From NCBI RefSeq assembly GCF_024298765.1, contig NZ_CP101210.1: 64,000 nucleotides of DNA; one strand, written 5' to 3'. Below are positions 4,968 to 34,218 of the stretch, piece by piece (the first letter of the stretch is position 1; each line of letters opens with the position of its first letter). Made by a program: the position numbers and the translations under genes. Under the pieces are notes generated by a model. The model was not told where the DNA came from. It saw only the letters and a program-made list of their open reading frames with translations, and did no database searches. This DNA comes from Escherichia coli. GTDB lineage: Bacteria; Pseudomonadota; Gammaproteobacteria; Enterobacterales; Enterobacteriaceae.

Positions 4968-5450
4968 ATGTCAGGACCTCCGAAAACCCCGCCACGCCTG
5001 CATTTGATACGAGGCAACCCCTCAAAGCGCCCCGTTAAAGACCACAAAAAAACCGCTAAAAAGGATGAAAAAGGTCTTCCTAAAATTCCGCAGCATTTAG
5101 GGGCTCAGGGGAAGTACTGGTTCAGGCGAATGGCGGAAGAGCTGAATGCGGAAGGGATCATTTCTCAGCTTGATGCGCGTGCGCTCGAGTTGCTGGTGGA
5201 AGCCTACACCGAATATCGGCATCACTGCGAAACACTCGATGTTGAGGGGTATACCTACCGCACGGAAACGCAGAGCGGTGATGTACTGATTAAGGCGCAC
5301 CCCGCGGCGGCAATGAAAGCGGATGCCTGGAAGCGGATCCGGGCAATGCTTGCAGAGTTTGGTATGTCACCGGCAAGCCGGGCTAAAGTAAATATCGCCG
5401 GACCGGATGATGTTGATCCGCTGGCGGAGCTTTTAAAAGCGAGAGACTGA
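4968..5450 (+). CDS. Terminase small subunit (P27 family-like)
   Basis: Position upstream of and overlapping TerL start; typical basic N-terminus. Confidence 0.8.
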   Translation: MSGPPKTPPRLHLIRGNPSKRPVKDHKKTAKKDEKGLPKIPQHLGAQGKYWFRRMAEELNAEGIISQLDARALELLVEAYTEYRHHCETLDVEGYTYRTETQSGDVLIKAHPAAAMKADAWKRIRAMLAEFGMSPASRAKVNIAGPDDVDPLAELLKARD

Positions 5451-10741: not shown

Positions 10742-11047
10742 ATGATGCCCACTCTGGAAGAGCTTCGTGTTCAGTGCCGGATTGATGATGACAATGAACA
10801 GGAGAATTCTCTTCTTATGATGTATCTGGCTGCTGCCAGGGAAGAGGCTGAAAAGTTTTTAAACCGGACGCTTTACGATGAAACTGTTTCTGAGCAGGAT
10901 ACAACCGGGCTTGTAATAACACCTCTGATAAAACTGCGTCTTATGCAACTGGTTGGCTACTGGTACGAGAACAGGGAAATGCAGGATGCAGTGCCTGATT
11001 TTTTCTATACCGGACTGCGGATGTATCGATTTCATCCCGGAACATAG
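10742..11047 (+). CDS. Head-tail connector / DNA-packaging protein (gp6-like)
   Basis: Size, position and general similarity. Confidence 0.65.
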   Translation: MMPTLEELRVQCRIDDDNEQENSLLMMYLAAAREEAEKFLNRTLYDETVSEQDTTGLVITPLIKLRLMQLVGYWYENREMQDAVPDFFYTGLRMYRFHPGT

Positions 11048-11055
11048 GAGGATTC

Positions 11056-11394
11056 ATGCAGGCAGGAAGATTACGTGATCGTGTGGTTATTCTGAATGCC
11101 ACCACCGTTCGGTCTCCGTCAGGGCACCCTGTGGAAACAATGACGGAGGGGGCAACCATATGGGCAGAAGTTAAGGGGATCAGTAGCAGGGAGAGAATAT
11201 CCGGAGGCGCAGAAACTGCTCAGGCTACAGTGAGGGTCTGGATGAGATTCCGGCGAGATGTAACAGCAACTTCATGTCTGAAAGTGCTGACTGGTGCATT
11301 CAAAGGCGCGATTCTGAGTATAGACGGTCCGCCGATACCGGATGCTCGTGCCACACGGCTTGAGATACTCTGTTCTCAGAAGGGGAATGTGTGA
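11056..11394 (+). CDS. Head closure / head-tail joining protein
   Basis: Positional and size. Confidence 0.65.
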   Translation: MQAGRLRDRVVILNATTVRSPSGHPVETMTEGATIWAEVKGISSRERISGGAETAQATVRVWMRFRRDVTATSCLKVLTGAFKGAILSIDGPPIPDARATRLEILCSQKGNV

Positions 11395-12181: not shown

Positions 12182-12202
12182 GGTCGTTAATGATTTTACC
12201 CA

Positions 12203-12228
12203 CCCGCCGCTGGCGGGTTTTTTATTTT
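12203..12228 (+). terminator. Hairpin plus T-run immediately upstream of major tail gene
   Basis: CCCGCC-GCT-GGCGGG followed by TTTTTTATTTT. Confidence 0.45.
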
Positions 12229-12240
12229 CAGGAGACGAGT

Positions 12241-12945
12241 ATGTCCTCTAATTTTGAGCGTTCGCAACTGACGAAAATTATGATTTCGTCTGCACCGGTA
12301 ACAGCAGAAACCCTGGATTCTGCCAGCTATCTTGGCCTGAGCTGTACAATCAAAGAGGTGCAGTTTACCGCAGGACAAAAGCAGGATATTGATGTCACCA
12401 CGCTGTGTTCTGTTGAGCAGGAAAATATTAACGGCCTTGGTGCCGCGTCAGAGATTTCCATGTCAGGCAACTTTTACCTCAATGCTGCCCAGAACGCGTT
12501 GCGCAGTGCCTATGACAATGCCACCACGTATGGCTTTAAAGTTATTTTTCCGTCAGGCAACGGATTTACCTTTATGGCAGAGGTGCGTCAGCATACCTGG
12601 TCTGCAGGAACTAATGGTGTTGTGGCTGCAACGTTTTCCCTGCGCCTGAAAGGTAAACCTGTGCTGACGACAGAGCCGCTGAAAGTGAAGGTCGATTTAA
12701 ACAGCACGCTGCAGGTTTCTGCCGGAGCGAAACTCGAAATGGTGGTTGAGGCTGCCGGTGGTGTGCCGCCTTATTCTTATGTCTGGAAGAAAGGTAGTTC
12801 TCCTGTTTCCGGACAGACGGCGGCAACATTCAGTAAGGCATCAGCAGCATCAGGTGATGCCGGTGCGTATACCTGCGAGATTTCTGATTCAGCAAGCCCT
12901 GTTAACAAGGTGACCTCCACTTCCTGCACTGTTACCGTCAGTTAA
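12241..12945 (+). CDS. Major tail tube protein with C-terminal Ig-like domain
   Basis: RBS CAGGAGACG; C-terminal beta-rich Ig-like segment; position before G/GT. Confidence 0.85.
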   Translation: MSSNFERSQLTKIMISSAPVTAETLDSASYLGLSCTIKEVQFTAGQKQDIDVTTLCSVEQENINGLGAASEISMSGNFYLNAAQNALRSAYDNATTYGFKVIFPSGNGFTFMAEVRQHTWSAGTNGVVAATFSLRLKGKPVLTTEPLKVKVDLNSTLQVSAGAKLEMVVEAAGGVPPYSYVWKKGSSPVSGQTAATFSKASAASGDAGAYTCEISDSASPVNKVTSTSCTVTVS

Positions 12946-13331
12946 TGAGGATAGATGTGATGACTAAAAATATCCGCAATCTGGCACTGGCAACGATGTC
13001 GGGGTTTCGCCATAAAACTGTTGATGTGCCTGAATGGGAAGGGGCAACGGTTGTATTACGGGAACCTTCTGCAGAAGCCTGGTTGCGCTGGCAGGAGATC
13101 GTTAAAGCAAAAGATGATGAGACACCGTTATCCGTTGCGGAGCGCGCCCGCCGAAATCTGGAGGCAGATGTTGAACTGTTCATTGATGTTCTGTGTGATA
13201 CCGGACTGCAACCTGTATTTTCAGAGGATGATCGTGAACAGGTGATTGCCGTGTATGGCCCGGTGCATGCGCGGCTTCTTCGGCAGTCTCTGGAACTGAT
13301 CAGTGATGCCGGCGAGGTTAAAAAAAAGTAG
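12945..13331 (+). CDS. Tail assembly chaperone G
   Basis: Position before tape measure; ends at slippery heptamer. Confidence 0.8.
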   Translation: MRIDVMTKNIRNLALATMSGFRHKTVDVPEWEGATVVLREPSAEAWLRWQEIVKAKDDETPLSVAERARRNLEADVELFIDVLCDTGLQPVFSEDDREQVIAVYGPVHARLLRQSLELISDAGEVKKK

Positions 13332-13633
13332 AGCTTCCGGGGATGCGTTTTCTGATGATGCTGGCGCTCAGGATGGGGCGCACATTGTCAGAGTTACGCC
13401 GGGAAATGTCCGCATCAGAAATCATGATGTGGGCAGAATTTGACAGGTTCAGCCCGCTGGGTGACGAGCGGGCTGATATCCGGGCTGCCCAGATAGTTTC
13501 TGCGGTTTACGGTGCGCAGGGTGTCAAAGTCCCACTGAATGATGCGCTTCTTCAGTGGGAACAAGAGCAGACAGAAGGCGTCTCAGATCCATTTGCCGGA
13601 CTGGAAAACGCGCTTTTAATAGTGTCTCAGTGA
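13322..13633 (+). CDS. GT extension produced by programmed -1 frameshift at A AAA AAG (13322-13328)
   Basis: Slippery heptamer at end of G; -1 frame open through ORF 13343-13633. Confidence 0.75.
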   Translation, partial: KKVELPGMRFLMMLALRMGRTLSELRREMSASEIMMWAEFDRFSPLGDERADIRAAQIVSAVYGAQGVKVPLNDALLQWEQEQTEGVSDPFAGLENALLIVSQ

Positions 13634-13641
13634 GTCAACAT

Positions 13642-13662
13642 AACCGCTTCGGCGGTTTTTTT
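13642..13662 (+). terminator. Hairpin plus T-run after G/GT
   Basis: AACCGC-TTCG-GCGGTT followed by T7. Confidence 0.5.
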
Positions 13663-13672
13663 CGTCCGGAGA

Positions 13673-16600
13673 ATGAGTGTGGCGACATTACGTGAACTGA
13701 TTATTAAAATCTCGGCAAATTCCCGGTCATTCCAGTCAGAGATCTCCCGGGCTTCGCGTATGGGGCTGGATTACTACCGTACCATGCAGAACGGAGGCCG
13801 GCAGTCCGCTGCTGCATCCCGTGAAATGCGGCGTGCACTGGCAGAAGTGACGGATCAGATAAATACAGCTAAATCTTCGGCACTGAATATGGCGGGGGCA
13901 TTTGCCGGAGCTTTTGCTACCGGTCATCTTATTTCTCTCGCCGATGAGTGGAATTCAGTAAATGCCCGTCTGAAGCAGGCTTCACAGTCCAGTGATGATT
14001 TTCAGGTATCACAACGTGAATTAATGGCAATCAGCCAGAGAACGGGAACGGCGTTTTCTGATAACGCCAGCCTTTTTGCCCGCTCTGCAGCTTCCATGCG
14101 GGAGTATGGCTACAGTTCTGAGGAGGTACTGAAAGTCACCGAGGCGATCTCCACGGGCCTGAAATTATCCGGTGCCAGTACAGCAGAAGCCAGTTCGGTG
14201 ATCACGCAGTTCAGTCAGGCACTGGCGCAGGGAGTGCTGCGCGGTGAAGAATTTAACTCTGTGAATGAGAACGGCGATCGTGTTATTCGTGCGCTGGCTG
14301 CGGGAATGGGTGTTGCCCGTAAGGATCTGAAGGCCATGGCGGATAACGGAAAACTGACCGCCGATAAGGTTGTTCCTGCACTGATTAGTCAGCTTGGGGC
14401 GTTGCGTGATGAATATGCAGCAATGCCTGATACTGTTTCATCCTCTGCAACCAAAGTTGAAAACGCCTTTATGGCCTGGGTTGGTGGTGCGAACGAGGCA
14501 AGCGGAGTGACAAAGACACTCACCGGGGTGTTGAATGGTGTTGCAGACAATATTGATACCGTGGCTGCTGCAGCTGGCGCACTGGTTGCCGTCGGGGTAG
14601 CCCGATATTTTGGCAATATGGCGTCGTCTGCTGGATCTGCAACTGCCGGATTAATTACTGCAGCCAGAAACGAAGTGGCTCTTGCTGAAGCGCAACTTCG
14701 GGGGACACAGATAGCAACCGCCAGGGCGCGTGCGGCGGTTTATCGTGCGCAACAGGCGGTTGTTGCTGCTCGCGGTACCGAAAGGCAGGCCGCAGCAGAA
14801 GCGAAGCTGACAGCTGCCCAGGCGTCACTTACCCGTAATATTGCGGCCAGAACAGCGGCACAGACAACGCTGAATACTGTCACGTCAGTGGGGAGTCGTC
14901 TGTTAAGTGGTGCGCTGGGGTTGGTTGGTGGTGTGCCGGGACTCGTCATGCTGGGGGCGACGGCCTGGTACACGATGTATCAGAATCAGGAGCAGGCCAG
15001 AGAATCTGCACGCCAGTATGCCGCAACAATCGACGAAATTCGCCAGAAAACGTCGGCAATGTCGCTTCCTGAAGCGTCAGATAATGAGGAAAAGACGCGG
15101 CAGGCACTTGATGAGCAAAACAGGTTAATTGACGAGCAGAAAAGTAAGATTAAATCCTTACAGGAAAAAATTGCTGGCTATCAGTATGTGCTGGCAAACC
15201 CGGGCTGGACAACCGATAACGGTTTTATGATTAACCACATGACGTCGGTAAAAACTGTCACAGAAGGGCTTGCAGAAGCAACAAATCAACTGGCAGTTGA
15301 ACAGTCCCGTCTCACACAAATGCAGGGCAAAGCGCAATCCATTCAGGATGTGCTTGCCGGGCTGGAGGAGCGACGGGGGGCGTTGATCCGTCAACAGGCC
15401 GCGGAACAAAACAAAGCGTATCAGTCCCTGTTGATCATGAATGGGCAGCATACCGAGTTTAATCGCCTTCTCGGGCTCGGTAATGAATTACTTCAGCAGC
15501 GACAGGGGCTGGTGAATGTACCGTTACGGCTACCACAGGCAACCCTGGATGATAAACAGCAGACCGCACTGAATAACAGCGAGCGCGAACTGGCTCTGTC
15601 CCGCCTGAAGGGGGAAGCCCGTGAGCGTGCCCGCCTGGGTTATGCTGCGGATGATCTCGGCTTTGTGGGAGAGGCGTATCAGACAGCCAGACAGAATTAT
15701 ATCAATACCTCACTGGATGCCTGGCGAAATAACCAGGTAAATAAACCCAAAGCGCATAAAAAGACCGAAGCGGAAAAAACAGAAGATATTTATAAACGGC
15801 TGATTAAACAGCAAAAAGAACAAATAGCACTGGCAGGGCAGAATACTGAACTGGCTAAGATGAAATATCAGGTCAGTCAGGGCGAATTATCAACCCTGTC
15901 AGAAGCGCAGAAAAAAACGCTTTTGCAGAATGCAGCACTCATCGACCAGAAAAAGGTTCGTGAGCAGCTTGCTGCGTATGAGAGCAGTCTGGCGGACAGT
16001 AATGCCAGTGCCCGGGCATCTGACGAAGCGCAGTTGCTGGGATATGGTGAAGGCTCACGGATGCGTGAACGACTCCAGGAAATGTGGAGTATCCGGCAGG
16101 CGTTTGAGCAGAAAAATAACGAGCTGCTGAGACAGTATCAGGCCGGAGAAATTGAAGAAGCCCTGTGGAAACAGGAGAAAGAACTGAATAAAAAATATCT
16201 GGAAGAGCGTCTCAGTGATCAGCAGGATTATTATGCAAAGGCCGATGCTTTACGTAATAACTGGAATGCCGGACTCCAGGAGGGACTGACCAACTGGGCA
16301 GACAGTGCCACCGATTATGCTTCACAGGCGGCAGATGCTGTCGTTTCCACGATGGACGGGCTGGTATCAAATATTTCCGATGCACTGGCCGGGAATGTTG
16401 TGGACTGGAGGAACTGGGGGAGTTCAGTTCTCCGGGAAGTTTCAAAAATTCTGATGAATGCAGCCATTGTTAACGGACTGAAATCACTCTCCGGTGCCGG
16501 AGGGTGGCTTGGTACGGTCGGCGGATGGATTTCGGGGGCAGTGGCAAACGCAAAAGGTGGTGTTTACACATCGGCAAATCTGAGTGCTTACAGTAACACT

Positions 16601-16906
16601 ATTGTGGATACACCGACGTATTTTGCTTTTGCGAAAGGTGCCGGGTTGATGGGCGAGGCCGGGCCTGAAGCAATCATGCCACTGACACGGGCAGCGGACG
16701 GCTCTCTTGGGGTCAGGGCCATTGGAAATGTGAATGGTGGCGGTGGATTTGTTTATTCTCCCGTGTATCACATCAGCATTCAGAATCAAGGGAGCAATGG
16801 CGAGATAGATGCGCGCTCAGCCAGGGGACTGGTGGATCTGATCGACAGCAGGGTTGTGTCAATTATGCAGTCATCGCGTCGGGATGGAGGATTGTACAGT
16901 GCCTGA
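13673..16906 (+). CDS. Tail tape measure protein
   Basis: 1077 aa, coiled-coil-rich, positional. Confidence 0.9.
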   Translation: MSVATLRELIIKISANSRSFQSEISRASRMGLDYYRTMQNGGRQSAAASREMRRALAEVTDQINTAKSSALNMAGAFAGAFATGHLISLADEWNSVNARLKQASQSSDDFQVSQRELMAISQRTGTAFSDNASLFARSAASMREYGYSSEEVLKVTEAISTGLKLSGASTAEASSVITQFSQALAQGVLRGEEFNSVNENGDRVIRALAAGMGVARKDLKAMADNGKLTADKVVPALISQLGALRDEYAAMPDTVSSSATKVENAFMAWVGGANEASGVTKTLTGVLNGVADNIDTVAAAAGALVAVGVARYFGNMASSAGSATAGLITAARNEVALAEAQLRGTQIATARARAAVYRAQQAVVAARGTERQAAAEAKLTAAQASLTRNIAARTAAQTTLNTVTSVGSRLLSGALGLVGGVPGLVMLGATAWYTMYQNQEQARESARQYAATIDEIRQKTSAMSLPEASDNEEKTRQALDEQNRLIDEQKSKIKSLQEKIAGYQYVLANPGWTTDNGFMINHMTSVKTVTEGLAEATNQLAVEQSRLTQMQGKAQSIQDVLAGLEERRGALIRQQAAEQNKAYQSLLIMNGQHTEFNRLLGLGNELLQQRQGLVNVPLRLPQATLDDKQQTALNNSERELALSRLKGEARERARLGYAADDLGFVGEAYQTARQNYINTSLDAWRNNQVNKPKAHKKTEAEKTEDIYKRLIKQQKEQIALAGQNTELAKMKYQVSQGELSTLSEAQKKTLLQNAALIDQKKVREQLAAYESSLADSNASARASDEAQLLGYGEGSRMRERLQEMWSIRQAFEQKNNELLRQYQAGEIEEALWKQEKELNKKYLEERLSDQQDYYAKADALRNNWNAGLQEGLTNWADSATDYASQAADAVVSTMDGLVSNISDALAGNVVDWRNWGSSVLREVSKILMNAAIVNGLKSLSGAGGWLGTVGGWISGAVANAKGGVYTSANLSAYSNTIVDTPTYFAFAKGAGLMGEAGPEAIMPLTRAADGSLGVRAIGNVNGGGGFVYSPVYHISIQNQGSNGEIDARSARGLVDLIDSRVVSIMQSSRRDGGLYSA

Positions 16907-32056: not shown

Positions 32057-32188
32057 GTTTATATCCTTGTCATGTGAATGAGTTTTGAGGATAGCGAAAA
32101 AGCGTCCACGGTAACCTTACAGCAGCATTACAATTTTGTAATGAACCAGGCTGTTTCTATAACATATGATTTATGGCATATTATTTTC

Positions 32189-32860
32189 ATGAAGATTTTA
32201 CTTATTGAAGATAATCAAAGGACCCAGGAGTGGGTAACGCAGGGGCTTTCCGAAGCGGGTTATGTCATTGATGCCGTTTCTGATGGCAGAGATGGGCTTT
32301 ATCTTGCGCTTAAGGATGATTATGCATTGATCATTCTGGATATTATGCTTCCGGGTATGGATGGCTGGCAGATCTTACAAACGTTAAGAACAGCAAAGCA
32401 AACTCCGGTTATTTGCCTTACTGCAAGAGATTCTGTCGATGACAGAGTCAGAGGGCTGGACAGTGGGGCAAATGATTATCTGGTAAAACCTTTTTCATTT
32501 TCTGAGTTGCTGGCAAGGGTTCGGGCACAATTAAGGCAACATCACACTCTGAATTCAACATTAGAAATCAGTGGCTTAAGAATGGACTCTGTTAGTCAAA
32601 GTGTGAGCAGGGACAATATCAGTATTACACTGACGCGCAAGGAGTTTCAGTTACTTTGGCTACTGGCCTCCAGAGCTGGCGAGATTATCCCCAGAACGGT
32701 TATTGCGAGTGAAATTTGGGGAATCAACTTTGATAGTGATACCAATACGGTGGACGTCGCCATTCGCAGGCTCCGCGCAAAAGTTGATGATCCTTTTCCT
32801 GAAAAGCTAATCGCCACAATCCGGGGGATGGGCTATTCATTCGTAGCGGTAAAAAAATAA
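32189..32860 (+). CDS. hprR: Two-component response regulator HprR (YedW)
   Basis: Receiver domain MKILLIEDN... plus winged-helix output domain. Confidence 0.9.
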   Translation: MKILLIEDNQRTQEWVTQGLSEAGYVIDAVSDGRDGLYLALKDDYALIILDIMLPGMDGWQILQTLRTAKQTPVICLTARDSVDDRVRGLDSGANDYLVKPFSFSELLARVRAQLRQHHTLNSTLEISGLRMDSVSQSVSRDNISITLTRKEFQLLWLLASRAGEIIPRTVIASEIWGINFDSDTNTVDVAIRRLRAKVDDPFPEKLIATIRGMGYSFVAVKK

Positions 32861-34218
32861 TGAAAAGATTATCTATAACCGTCCGTTTAACCTTGCTTTT
32901 TATATTGCTGCTGTCTGTTGCTGGCGCTGGAATTGTATGGACTCTCTATAATGGCCTGGCAAGTGAGTTGAAATGGCGCGATGATACAACACTCATTAAC
33001 CGGACAGCGCAGATCAAGCAGTTGTTAATTGATGGGGTAAATCCAGATACGTTACCTGTGTACTTTAACCGGATGATGGATGTTAGTCAGGATATCTTGA
33101 TCATTCATGGTGATAGCATCAACAAAATTGTTAACCGGACGAATGTCAGTGATGACATGTTAAATAACATATCTGCTACTGAGACAATCAGCGCAGCTGG
33201 CATTTACAGAAGCATTATTAATGATACAGAGATAGATGCTTTACGAATTAATATTGATGAAGTTTCGCCATCATTAACGGTTACTGTGGCTAAATTGGCT
33301 TCAGCCAGACATAACATGCTTGAACAGTATAAAATTAATAGCATTATAATTTGCATTGTCGCCATTGTACTTTGCTCAGTATTAAGTCCGCTGTTAATCA
33401 GAACGGGATTACGAGAGATCAAAAAGTTGAGTGGTGTAACGGAAGCGCTGAATTATAACGATAGCCGGGAGCCTGTTGAGGTTAGCGCATTACCGAGAGA
33501 ACTAAAACCTCTTGGGCAGGCGTTGAATAAAATGCATCATGCTTTAGTCAAAGATTTTGAGCGTCTAAGTCAGTTTGCTGACGATCTCGCTCATGAACTT
33601 AGAACGCCCATTAATGCATTACTGGGTCAGAATCAGGTTGCGCTCAGTCAAACCAGAAGTATCGCTGAATATCAAAAAACAATTGCCGGTAACATTGAAG
33701 AGCTGGAAAATATTTCGCGGTTAACAGAGAACATACTGTTTCTTGCCCGGGCAGATAAAAACAATGTTTTGGTGAAACTGGACTCACTTTTTCTCAATAA
33801 GGAAGTCGAAAATTTGTTGGATTATCTTGAATACCTTTCAGACGAGAAAGAGATTTGCTTTAAGGTCGAGTGCAATCAGCAAATCTTTGCGGATAAAATT
33901 TTACTGCAACGAATGTTATCGAATCTTATTGTTAATGCCATTAGATATTCACCAGAAAAATCGCGCATTCATATAACCAGTTTTCTTGATACCAACGGCT
34001 ATCTTAATATTGATATCGCCAGTCCTGGAACGAAAATTAATGAGCCTGAAAAACTCTTCCGTAGATTTTGGCGGGGAGATAATTCGCGTCATTCCGAAGG
34101 TCAGGGACTTGGTCTTTCTTTAGTCAAAGCGATTGCCGAATTGCATGGGGGAAGTGCTACGTATCACTATTTTAATAAGCATAATGTGTTCCGAATTACG
34201 TTACCGCAAAGAAATTAA
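32860..34218 (+). CDS. hprS: Sensor histidine kinase HprS (YedV)
   Basis: TM-periplasmic-TM, HAMP, H-box HELRTP, ATPase domain. Confidence 0.9.
   Translation: MKRLSITVRLTLLFILLLSVAGAGIVWTLYNGLASELKWRDDTTLINRTAQIKQLLIDGVNPDTLPVYFNRMMDVSQDILIIHGDSINKIVNRTNVSDDMLNNISATETISAAGIYRSIINDTEIDALRINIDEVSPSLTVTVAKLASARHNMLEQYKINSIIICIVAIVLCSVLSPLLIRTGLREIKKLSGVTEALNYNDSREPVEVSALPRELKPLGQALNKMHHALVKDFERLSQFADDLAHELRTPINALLGQNQVALSQTRSIAEYQKTIAGNIEELENISRLTENILFLARADKNNVLVKLDSLFLNKEVENLLDYLEYLSDEKEICFKVECNQQIFADKILLQRMLSNLIVNAIRYSPEKSRIHITSFLDTNGYLNIDIASPGTKINEPEKLFRRFWRGDNSRHSEGQGLGLSLVKAIAELHGGSATYHYFNKHNVFRITLPQRN

Follow-up and report, generated by a model that had tools for sequence, protein, structure and literature searches.

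A probable programmed -1 ribosomal frameshift in an HK97-type tail assembly chaperone gene pair of an Escherichia coli prophage

Described relatives of the G/T gene pair

In phage lambda the tail chaperone genes G and T are located between the genes for the major tail protein and the tape-measure protein, and they are joined into GT by a -1 shift on the heptamer G GGA AAG, close to where G ends. PMC5009743, which summarises Levin, Hendrix & Casjens 1993 and Xu, Hendrix & Duda 2004, 2013 and 2014, gives a G:GT ratio of about 30:1, describes the chaperones as absent from the virion and presents a model in which the G moiety, whether free or within GT, binds the tape measure and T binds the major tail protein. 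The two genes studied here, situated in a 64,000-nucleotide stretch of the E. coli chromosome (the window, by which the whole analysed stretch is meant), occupy the same place, and the -1 shift predicted for them likewise falls just before the first gene ends, but on the heptamer A AAA AAG. The T domains of lambda and of the window share the Pfam family PF06223, whereas G of lambda belongs to PF06894 (Phage_TAC_2) and G of the window matches PF06222 only. When compared pairwise by BLASTP, neither G nor T of the window showed similarity to its lambda counterpart (G: E = 4.9), and it is the Pfam profile alone that links the T domains.

The gp13/gp14 pair of phage HK97 carries PF06222 together with PF06223, as in the window (gp13 itself matches PF06222), and the fused GT of the window is 64% identical to HK97 GT (gp14). 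The GenBank record of HK97 contains, over the homologous pair, a joined CDS "translated due to a -1 frameshift", and the record of HK106 is annotated with the same join. The gene order in HK97 is that of the window, including an HK97-type tape-measure gene downstream, except that HK97 has an additional gene, gp15 ("moron product"), between T and the tape measure where the window has only a terminator-like hairpin. Read from the sequence only, the HK97 site is CGG GAA AAG (G GAA AAG), a sequence that departs from the strict X XXY YYZ pattern, and it is placed five codons before the stop of G within an overlap of 49 nt, compared to 7 nt in the window.

Experimental data are available for a further relative. 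Antonov et al. 2013 (PMC3711429) tested members of a "Phage_TAC" cluster similar to HK97, and a 75-nt cassette containing A AAA AAG TAG gave 7% frameshifting in an E. coli reporter (PMC3711429, Table S2) while a relative with G GGA AAG gave 6%. The tested cassette was found verbatim in Sakai Sp9 (ECs_1801/1802), YYZ-2008 and BP-4795, and ECs1801 is listed as "A_AAA_AAG_25, tail assembly chaperone; [true]" by Sharma et al. 2014 (PMC4066793, Table S4). The pair ECs1801/ECs1802 of E. coli O157:H7 Sakai is of the same family as the pair in the window (ECs_1801 is 68% identical to its G) and shares with it the A AAA AAG abutting TAG, the -1 frame of T and the pattern of the linker, and the GT of Stx-phage YYZ-2008 is 66% identical to the GT of the window. 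The two types differ in the length of the A run (six in the ECs1801 type, eight in the window) and of the overlap (22 nt versus 7 nt), and since the window and the tested cassette are identical at 50 of 75 nt the figure of 7% is that of the cassette and not of the site in the window. A site of this kind, with this heptamer directly followed by TAG, is in other words already described, and has been measured in a homologue.

Genes and sequence anatomy of the junction

Of 5426 complete E. coli genomes, 901 contain this region, which is prophage DNA. All genes discussed are on the plus strand. The gene of the major tail protein (12241–12945) was recognised by weak tail-tube Pfam matches and Ig domains, the Ig-like domain being C-terminal, and the gene of the HK97-type tape-measure protein (13673–16906) by matches to PF06120, PF20155 and PF09718. 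Between them lie the two open reading frames of G and T. Gene G (12960–13331, stop codon TAG included) encodes a tail assembly chaperone of 123 aa and 13.9 kDa that matches PF06222, Phage_TAC_1 (E 2.8e-58, 195.7 bits, cut-off 25) as well as PDB entry 2OB9 ("tail assembly chaperone", HK97 gp13; E 2.6e-49). The T segment (13328–13633; 101 aa, VELPGMRFLMM...IVSQ, followed by TGA at 13631–13633) lies in the -1 frame and matches PF06223, Phage_tail_T (E 3.6e-19, 69.4 bits, cut-off 25.9). When G is joined to the T segment a GT of 224 aa and 25.2 kDa results, with the sequence ...EVKKK-VELPGMRFLMM... at the junction. Gene order and the two Pfam families agree, which supports the assignment to a tail module made in the first-pass annotation.

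That annotation let gene G begin at 12945, which is only the start of the longest open reading frame and has to be replaced; the functional start is most likely the ATG at 12960. The PF06222 match begins at residue 6 of the longer frame, a GAGG is found 9 nt upstream of ATG 12960, and the same ATG is used in homologues and by PGAP (in a 100%-identical genome the CDS corresponds to 12960–13331). The PGAP CDS of the major tail gene, 705 nt long, ends at the equivalent of 12945.

The 0 frame of G ends ...ISDAGEVKKK*, with the last codons GTT (13317–13319), AAA (13320–13322), AAA (13323–13325) and AAG (13326–13328) followed by the stop codon TAG (13329–13331). A run of eight A (13320–13327) holds the slippery codons and is at the same time a possible tract for slippage of RNA polymerase. 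The heptamer A AAA AAG (13322–13328) was found, exactly to the base as had been proposed, directly before the stop of G and in the X XXY YYZ phase of this gene, and constitutes the putative -1 shift site. The -1 frame translates as ...CRRG*KKVELPGMRFLMM...IVSQ*. Its last upstream stop, TAA at 13319–13321, is situated immediately 5' of the heptamer, shuts the -1 frame upstream and bars any earlier shift, and from 13322 the frame is open, through the downstream reading frame as had been claimed, until TGA at 13631–13633, with ATG 13343 in the same frame. The stretch in which both the 0 and the -1 frame are open is thereby exactly 7 nt and identical to the heptamer, so a change of frame is possible only within the heptamer. 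The abutting TAG terminates G and may in addition act as a "shifty stop" context.

Taken together with the described relatives, the locus is very probably an HK97 gp13/gp14-type prophage chaperone pair expressed via programmed -1 ribosomal frameshifting, and the proposal of one G and one GT product is supported by the gene order, the Pfam matches, the identity to HK97, the conservation described below and the 7% measured for the homologue in the reporter. The majority of the ribosomes would translate G (12960–13328) and halt at TAG 13329, giving the chaperone of 123 aa, while a few percent would slip back one base on A AAA AAG (13322–13328), because the single tRNA-Lys of E. coli pairs with AAA at least as well as with AAG. 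The shifted ribosomes would then read GTA GAG CTT CCG GGG ATG... in the -1 frame until TGA 13631, giving the GT of 224 aa. By analogy with lambda, many copies of G together with the G part of GT would coat the tape-measure protein, which is the presumed binding partner of both, and the T domain would bring in the major tail protein, with neither G nor GT remaining in the virion. The anatomy of the sequence, its homology, the conservation of the signal and the activity of a homologous signal in a reporter are shown; we infer the efficiency at this exact site and the G:GT ratio, as well as, from homology, the role in assembly.

The public annotations speak against such a fusion in so far as they treat T as a separate CDS. 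In the RefSeq annotation (PGAP, four records opened of the 901) G and T are two CDSs; T begins at either 13343 or 13355, and its product name is "phage tail assembly protein T" or "DUF4035".

The position of the motif as proof of its significance was considered and dropped. The window contains the string AAAAAAG 29 times where 14.6 would be expected, and the long open reading frames of the window contain 101 in-phase X XXY YYZ heptamers, several of which are located near the end of a reading frame and lead into a downstream gene in the -1 frame. At the terS/terL junction there is a T TTA AAA with the next gene in the -1 frame, which is coincidental, and in hprR, a host response-regulator gene, an A AAA AAA directly before the stop leads to hprS, in this case an ordinary TAATG start/stop overlap. 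Since such heptamers near the ends of reading frames recur without meaning, the position of the motif is weak evidence, and it is the comparative and the published experimental evidence that carries the frameshift finding beyond chance.

Conservation of the shift site and the linker

The comparison comprised 172 loci that could be analysed, taken from phage GenBank records, E. coli genomes and IMG/VR contigs, which reduced to 58 distinct junction sequences. The least similar of their fused GT products is 36% identical to the GT of the window, and the most similar ones are nearly identical to it. A first wide search for loci returned mostly near-identical relatives, and a second one, seeded with a Halomonas phage, added diversity. 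Of the 58 unique junctions, 56 place T in the -1 frame, and the shift site and the linker following it are kept throughout the family, which bears out the earlier claim of a conserved tail-chaperone site. The two exceptions are obvious indels, an A run of seven in locus L049 and a 2-nt deletion within G in L054.

Such lesions in relatives, and the fact that the window is an E. coli chromosome carrying a prophage, would fit a site that is a relic in a defective prophage, with the arrangement inherited but expression and selection lost. However, the long open reading frames of the whole head-tail module are intact, near-identical phage genome records exist (Evi, phi467 and others, 96–99% identical across the region) and the junction is retained in all fetched loci of the close clade but one, and a relic is regarded as scarcely credible. 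A programmed frameshift agrees also with the details of the junctions. In every junction read the homologous lysine codon is kept and is preceded by a codon ending in A (AAA, GGA, GAA or GCA), so that each of those read among the 56 unique -1-frame junctions shows A_AAG, A_AAC or A_AAA, in frame, at the junction lysine. The residue before this lysine varies (K, G, E or A) and yet its wobble base is always A, which indicates a constraint at the nucleotide level that preserves A_AAG. In E. coli A_AAG is the most shift-prone tetramer, and A AAA AAG is among the most shift-prone heptamers.

When sorting the unique junctions by type, A AAA AAG followed by the stop codon was found in 15 and A AAA AAG whose stop follows only after 30 nt in two; A AAA AAC plus stop (four), A AAA AAA plus stop (two) and G GGA AAG (two) also occur. 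Another 30 unique junctions are without a strict in-phase heptamer, being either G GAA AAG sites, as in HK97 and many more, or GCA AAG followed by TAA. A stop codon directly after the shift codon is seen in 21 unique junctions with a canonical heptamer and in addition in the GCA AAG TAA junctions. Within the close clade the run of eight A is retained in all fetched loci except L049, two loci having nine through a change of G to A. The only substitution in the run, AAG to AAA, leaves the site slippery, while flanking synonymous sites vary (GGC/GGA/GGT, GAG/GAA).

A run of this length also allows for another explanation, in which GT arises mainly through RNA polymerase adding one A on the run at 13320–13327, giving an mRNA with nine A and with G and T in frame. 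Runs of more than seven A are listed as transcriptional-realignment motifs (PMC3711429), polymerase slippage is efficient at runs of nine A or nine T, some relatives (L069, L073 and the Halomonas phage) do carry nine A, and the product of slippage, ...VKKKVELPG..., is the same as that of the frameshift. Both mechanisms thus give ...EVKKKVELPG..., and mass spectrometry is unable to separate ribosomal from transcriptional slippage. What is conserved throughout the family, though, is the in-phase A_AAG and not the length of the run; many relatives have only three to four A (GTG GAA AAG, GCA AAG), others six or seven, and the homologue measured at 7% has six, too few for the polymerase to slip appreciably. 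How the run is phased against the codons is conserved as well, which matters for the ribosome but not for the polymerase. With most relatives having three to seven A and the measured homologue six, polymerase slippage is unlikely to be the selected mechanism; it probably contributes a minor share at most, and as the main source of GT it is considered improbable.

After the shift the -1 frame encodes a conserved linker, V/A-x-x-P-G-x-x-F-L-M, located upstream of ATG 13343 and of every other usable start of T. Its proline (residue 127 of GT), also encoded 5' of this ATG, is invariant in the alignments examined. The ATG itself is not conserved as a start and is replaced by ATT or ATA in L065-67, L052 and L069. 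The conserved linker upstream of ATG 13343, together with the loss of the ATG in relatives, speaks for a -1 frame whose translation continues from the heptamer rather than starting at an internal codon, as far as can be judged from the aligned sequences.

The same observations bear on the possibility of no recoding at all, with T made separately from ATG 13343 or ATG 13355, whether ribosomes initiate there independently or reinitiate after terminating on G. The first of these is situated only 12 nt past the stop of G, the second follows shortly, and PGAP lets the CDS of T begin at one or the other. But ATG 13343 has no proper Shine-Dalgarno sequence (a GGGG abuts it), it is replaced by ATT or ATA in relatives, the starts that annotators give T are inconsistent, and the stretch from the heptamer to the ATG is conserved at the protein level in the -1 frame, including the invariant proline. 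In addition the homologous cassette yields a fusion product in the reporter, and the HK97 and HK106 records annotate the G-T join. Separate synthesis of T is for these reasons very improbable, and the real second product is almost certainly the 224-aa GT fusion joined at 13328.

Local context of the site and its meaning for the prophage family

The first-pass annotation had called the heptamer dnaX-type, which holds for the heptamer itself but not for its surroundings. The A AAA AAG of the window is identical to that of dnaX, is in phase and is decoded by the same single tRNA-Lys. The dnaX site has, however, a Shine-Dalgarno-like stimulator some 10 nt before the heptamer and a hairpin shortly after it (about 6 nt; 5–9 nt), reaches about 50% shifting and leads to a shorter product, whereas no such stimulators were found in the window and the shifted product is the longer one.

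A downstream stimulatory structure, to be looked for according to the same annotation, was searched for by folding, by a fold of the alignment and in Rfam, and none was found. A 100-nt fold was no better than those of shuffled sequences (MFE z = -1.1), with the predicted stem beginning 16 nt downstream, and an Rfam scan of 13100–13800 at E <= 10 gave sub-threshold noise only and no frameshift element. The alignment fold, based on eight diverse homologues, showed one conserved hairpin of 7 bp about 34 nt downstream, with 0 compensatory pairs and encoding the invariant LALRMGR. Lacking covariation and encoding this peptide, the hairpin was rejected as a stimulator. The GAGG at 13314–13317 was likewise rejected as a Shine-Dalgarno stimulator, being only 4 nt from the heptamer and not conserved (it is GAAG in L064 and L065-67 and is missing in the YYZ-2008 type).

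The absence of a conserved stimulator in the window speaks against the frameshift, as does the value of only 0.29% given by A_AAA_AAG without stimulators in a neutral reporter. With the stimulators of IS911 the heptamer reaches 4.3% and with the IS3 pseudoknot 39%. The 7% of the ECs1801 cassette set against the 0.29% of the bare heptamer implies that there is some effect of local context, for which the abutting stop codon is a candidate. Such a context is the "shifty stop" of Weiss et al. 1987.

An A8 run abutting TAG could also be a site with three routes to the same fusion, a possibility that is put forward tentatively and appears rather unlikely. The first route would be tandem slippage of tRNA-Lys on A AAA AAG, the second a slip of the P-site tRNA-Lys while the ribosome pauses at TAG (a "shifty stop", sensitive to the level of RF1) and the third slippage of RNA polymerase from A8 to A9. 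Two observations hint in this direction. The A AAA AAG TAG cassette has no recognisable stimulator and still exceeds the bare heptamer (7% vs 0.29%), and relatives such as Klebsiella phage Kp4872-1 have only GCA AAG TAA with an overlap of 7 nt for the shift, where seemingly nothing but a slip of a single tRNA beside the stop could occur. If true, the prophages of this clade, widespread in E. coli, would make G and GT in a proportion that is not fixed but depends on the physiology of the host.

The practical value of the finding lies in annotation and not in new biology. The second product should be annotated as GT = join(12960..13328,13328..13633). The site confirms a functional-looking HK97-like tail module in this part of the window, and adds one more clade, with a run of eight A followed by TAG and an overlap of 7 nt, to a well-documented recoding family.

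Annotation and surroundings of the G/T unit

In the PGAP annotation of loci L002-L004 (RefSeq E. coli genomes) the T ORF, the -1-frame segment downstream of G, which codes for the tail assembly chaperone, is given as a stand-alone CDS, the equivalent of 13343-13633 in the window. Its start is placed inconsistently, at the equivalent of either 13343 or 13355, and it goes under the name of either "phage tail assembly protein T" or "DUF4035 domain-containing protein". The PGAP records of these three loci are without a ribosomal-slippage join, whereas such a join is present in the records of HK97 and HK106.

The unit formed by the major tail gene, G and T is flanked on both sides by strong terminator-like hairpins with T runs. 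The first (12202-12228) is situated directly 5' of the true major-tail start at 12241 and falls within the mechanical ORF 12190-12945, while the second (13642-13663) falls within the 39 nt that separate the T stop from the start of the tape-measure gene. Putative terminators at comparable positions are annotated in the HK97 record. In HK97, T and the tape measure are separated by gp15, a small gene whose annotation reads "moron product"; the window has only the hairpin there.

Other heptamers in the window

Two further in-phase slippery heptamers were found near ORF ends: T TTA AAA (5432-5438), 9 nt upstream of the stop of a terS-like ORF with a terL-like ORF downstream in the -1 frame, and T TTT TTC (10999-11005), within the head-tail connector ORF 10742-11047, which is followed in the -1 frame by ORF 11056-11394. 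Both are probably coincidences arising from compact gene packing. A third heptamer, A AAA AAA (32851-32857, in the region 32078-34218), stands immediately 5' of the stop of a host response-regulator gene (hprR/yedW-like), relative to which the sensor-kinase gene is in the -1 frame. Despite its resemblance to a frameshift site, the junction is an ordinary TAATG start/stop overlap, which makes it a negative control for frameshift calls based on the motif. It also identifies the right-hand portion of the window as E. coli chromosome, where hchA comes next.

Junction variants among the relatives

An in-frame G-T fusion created by an extra A was found in none of the 172 loci. In L049 (IMG/VR UViG_2531839448_000005), which is closely related to the window's clade, A7 replaces A8 and puts G in the third frame; the cause is either an error in sequencing the homopolymer or an indel that inactivates.

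Members of the HK97 type, namely HK97 (L016), L005, L007 and ~25 unique IMG/VR junctions, use G GAA AAG, in the form CGG GAA AAG or GTG GAA AAG. It does not fit the strict X XXY YYZ pattern, and these junctions were overlooked by the strict-heptamer script; here the P-site tRNA-Glu would re-pair on GGA via a G:U pair.

Klebsiella phage Kp4872-1 (L008) and L102-L128 instead have the junction GCA AAG TAA, with an overlap window that is 7 nt or short and without a tandem-slippery heptamer. The sole option at these junctions seems to be a single tRNA-Lys slip on A_AAG beside the stop, and this suggests that P-site "shifty stop" slippage is at work in part of the G/GT chaperone family.
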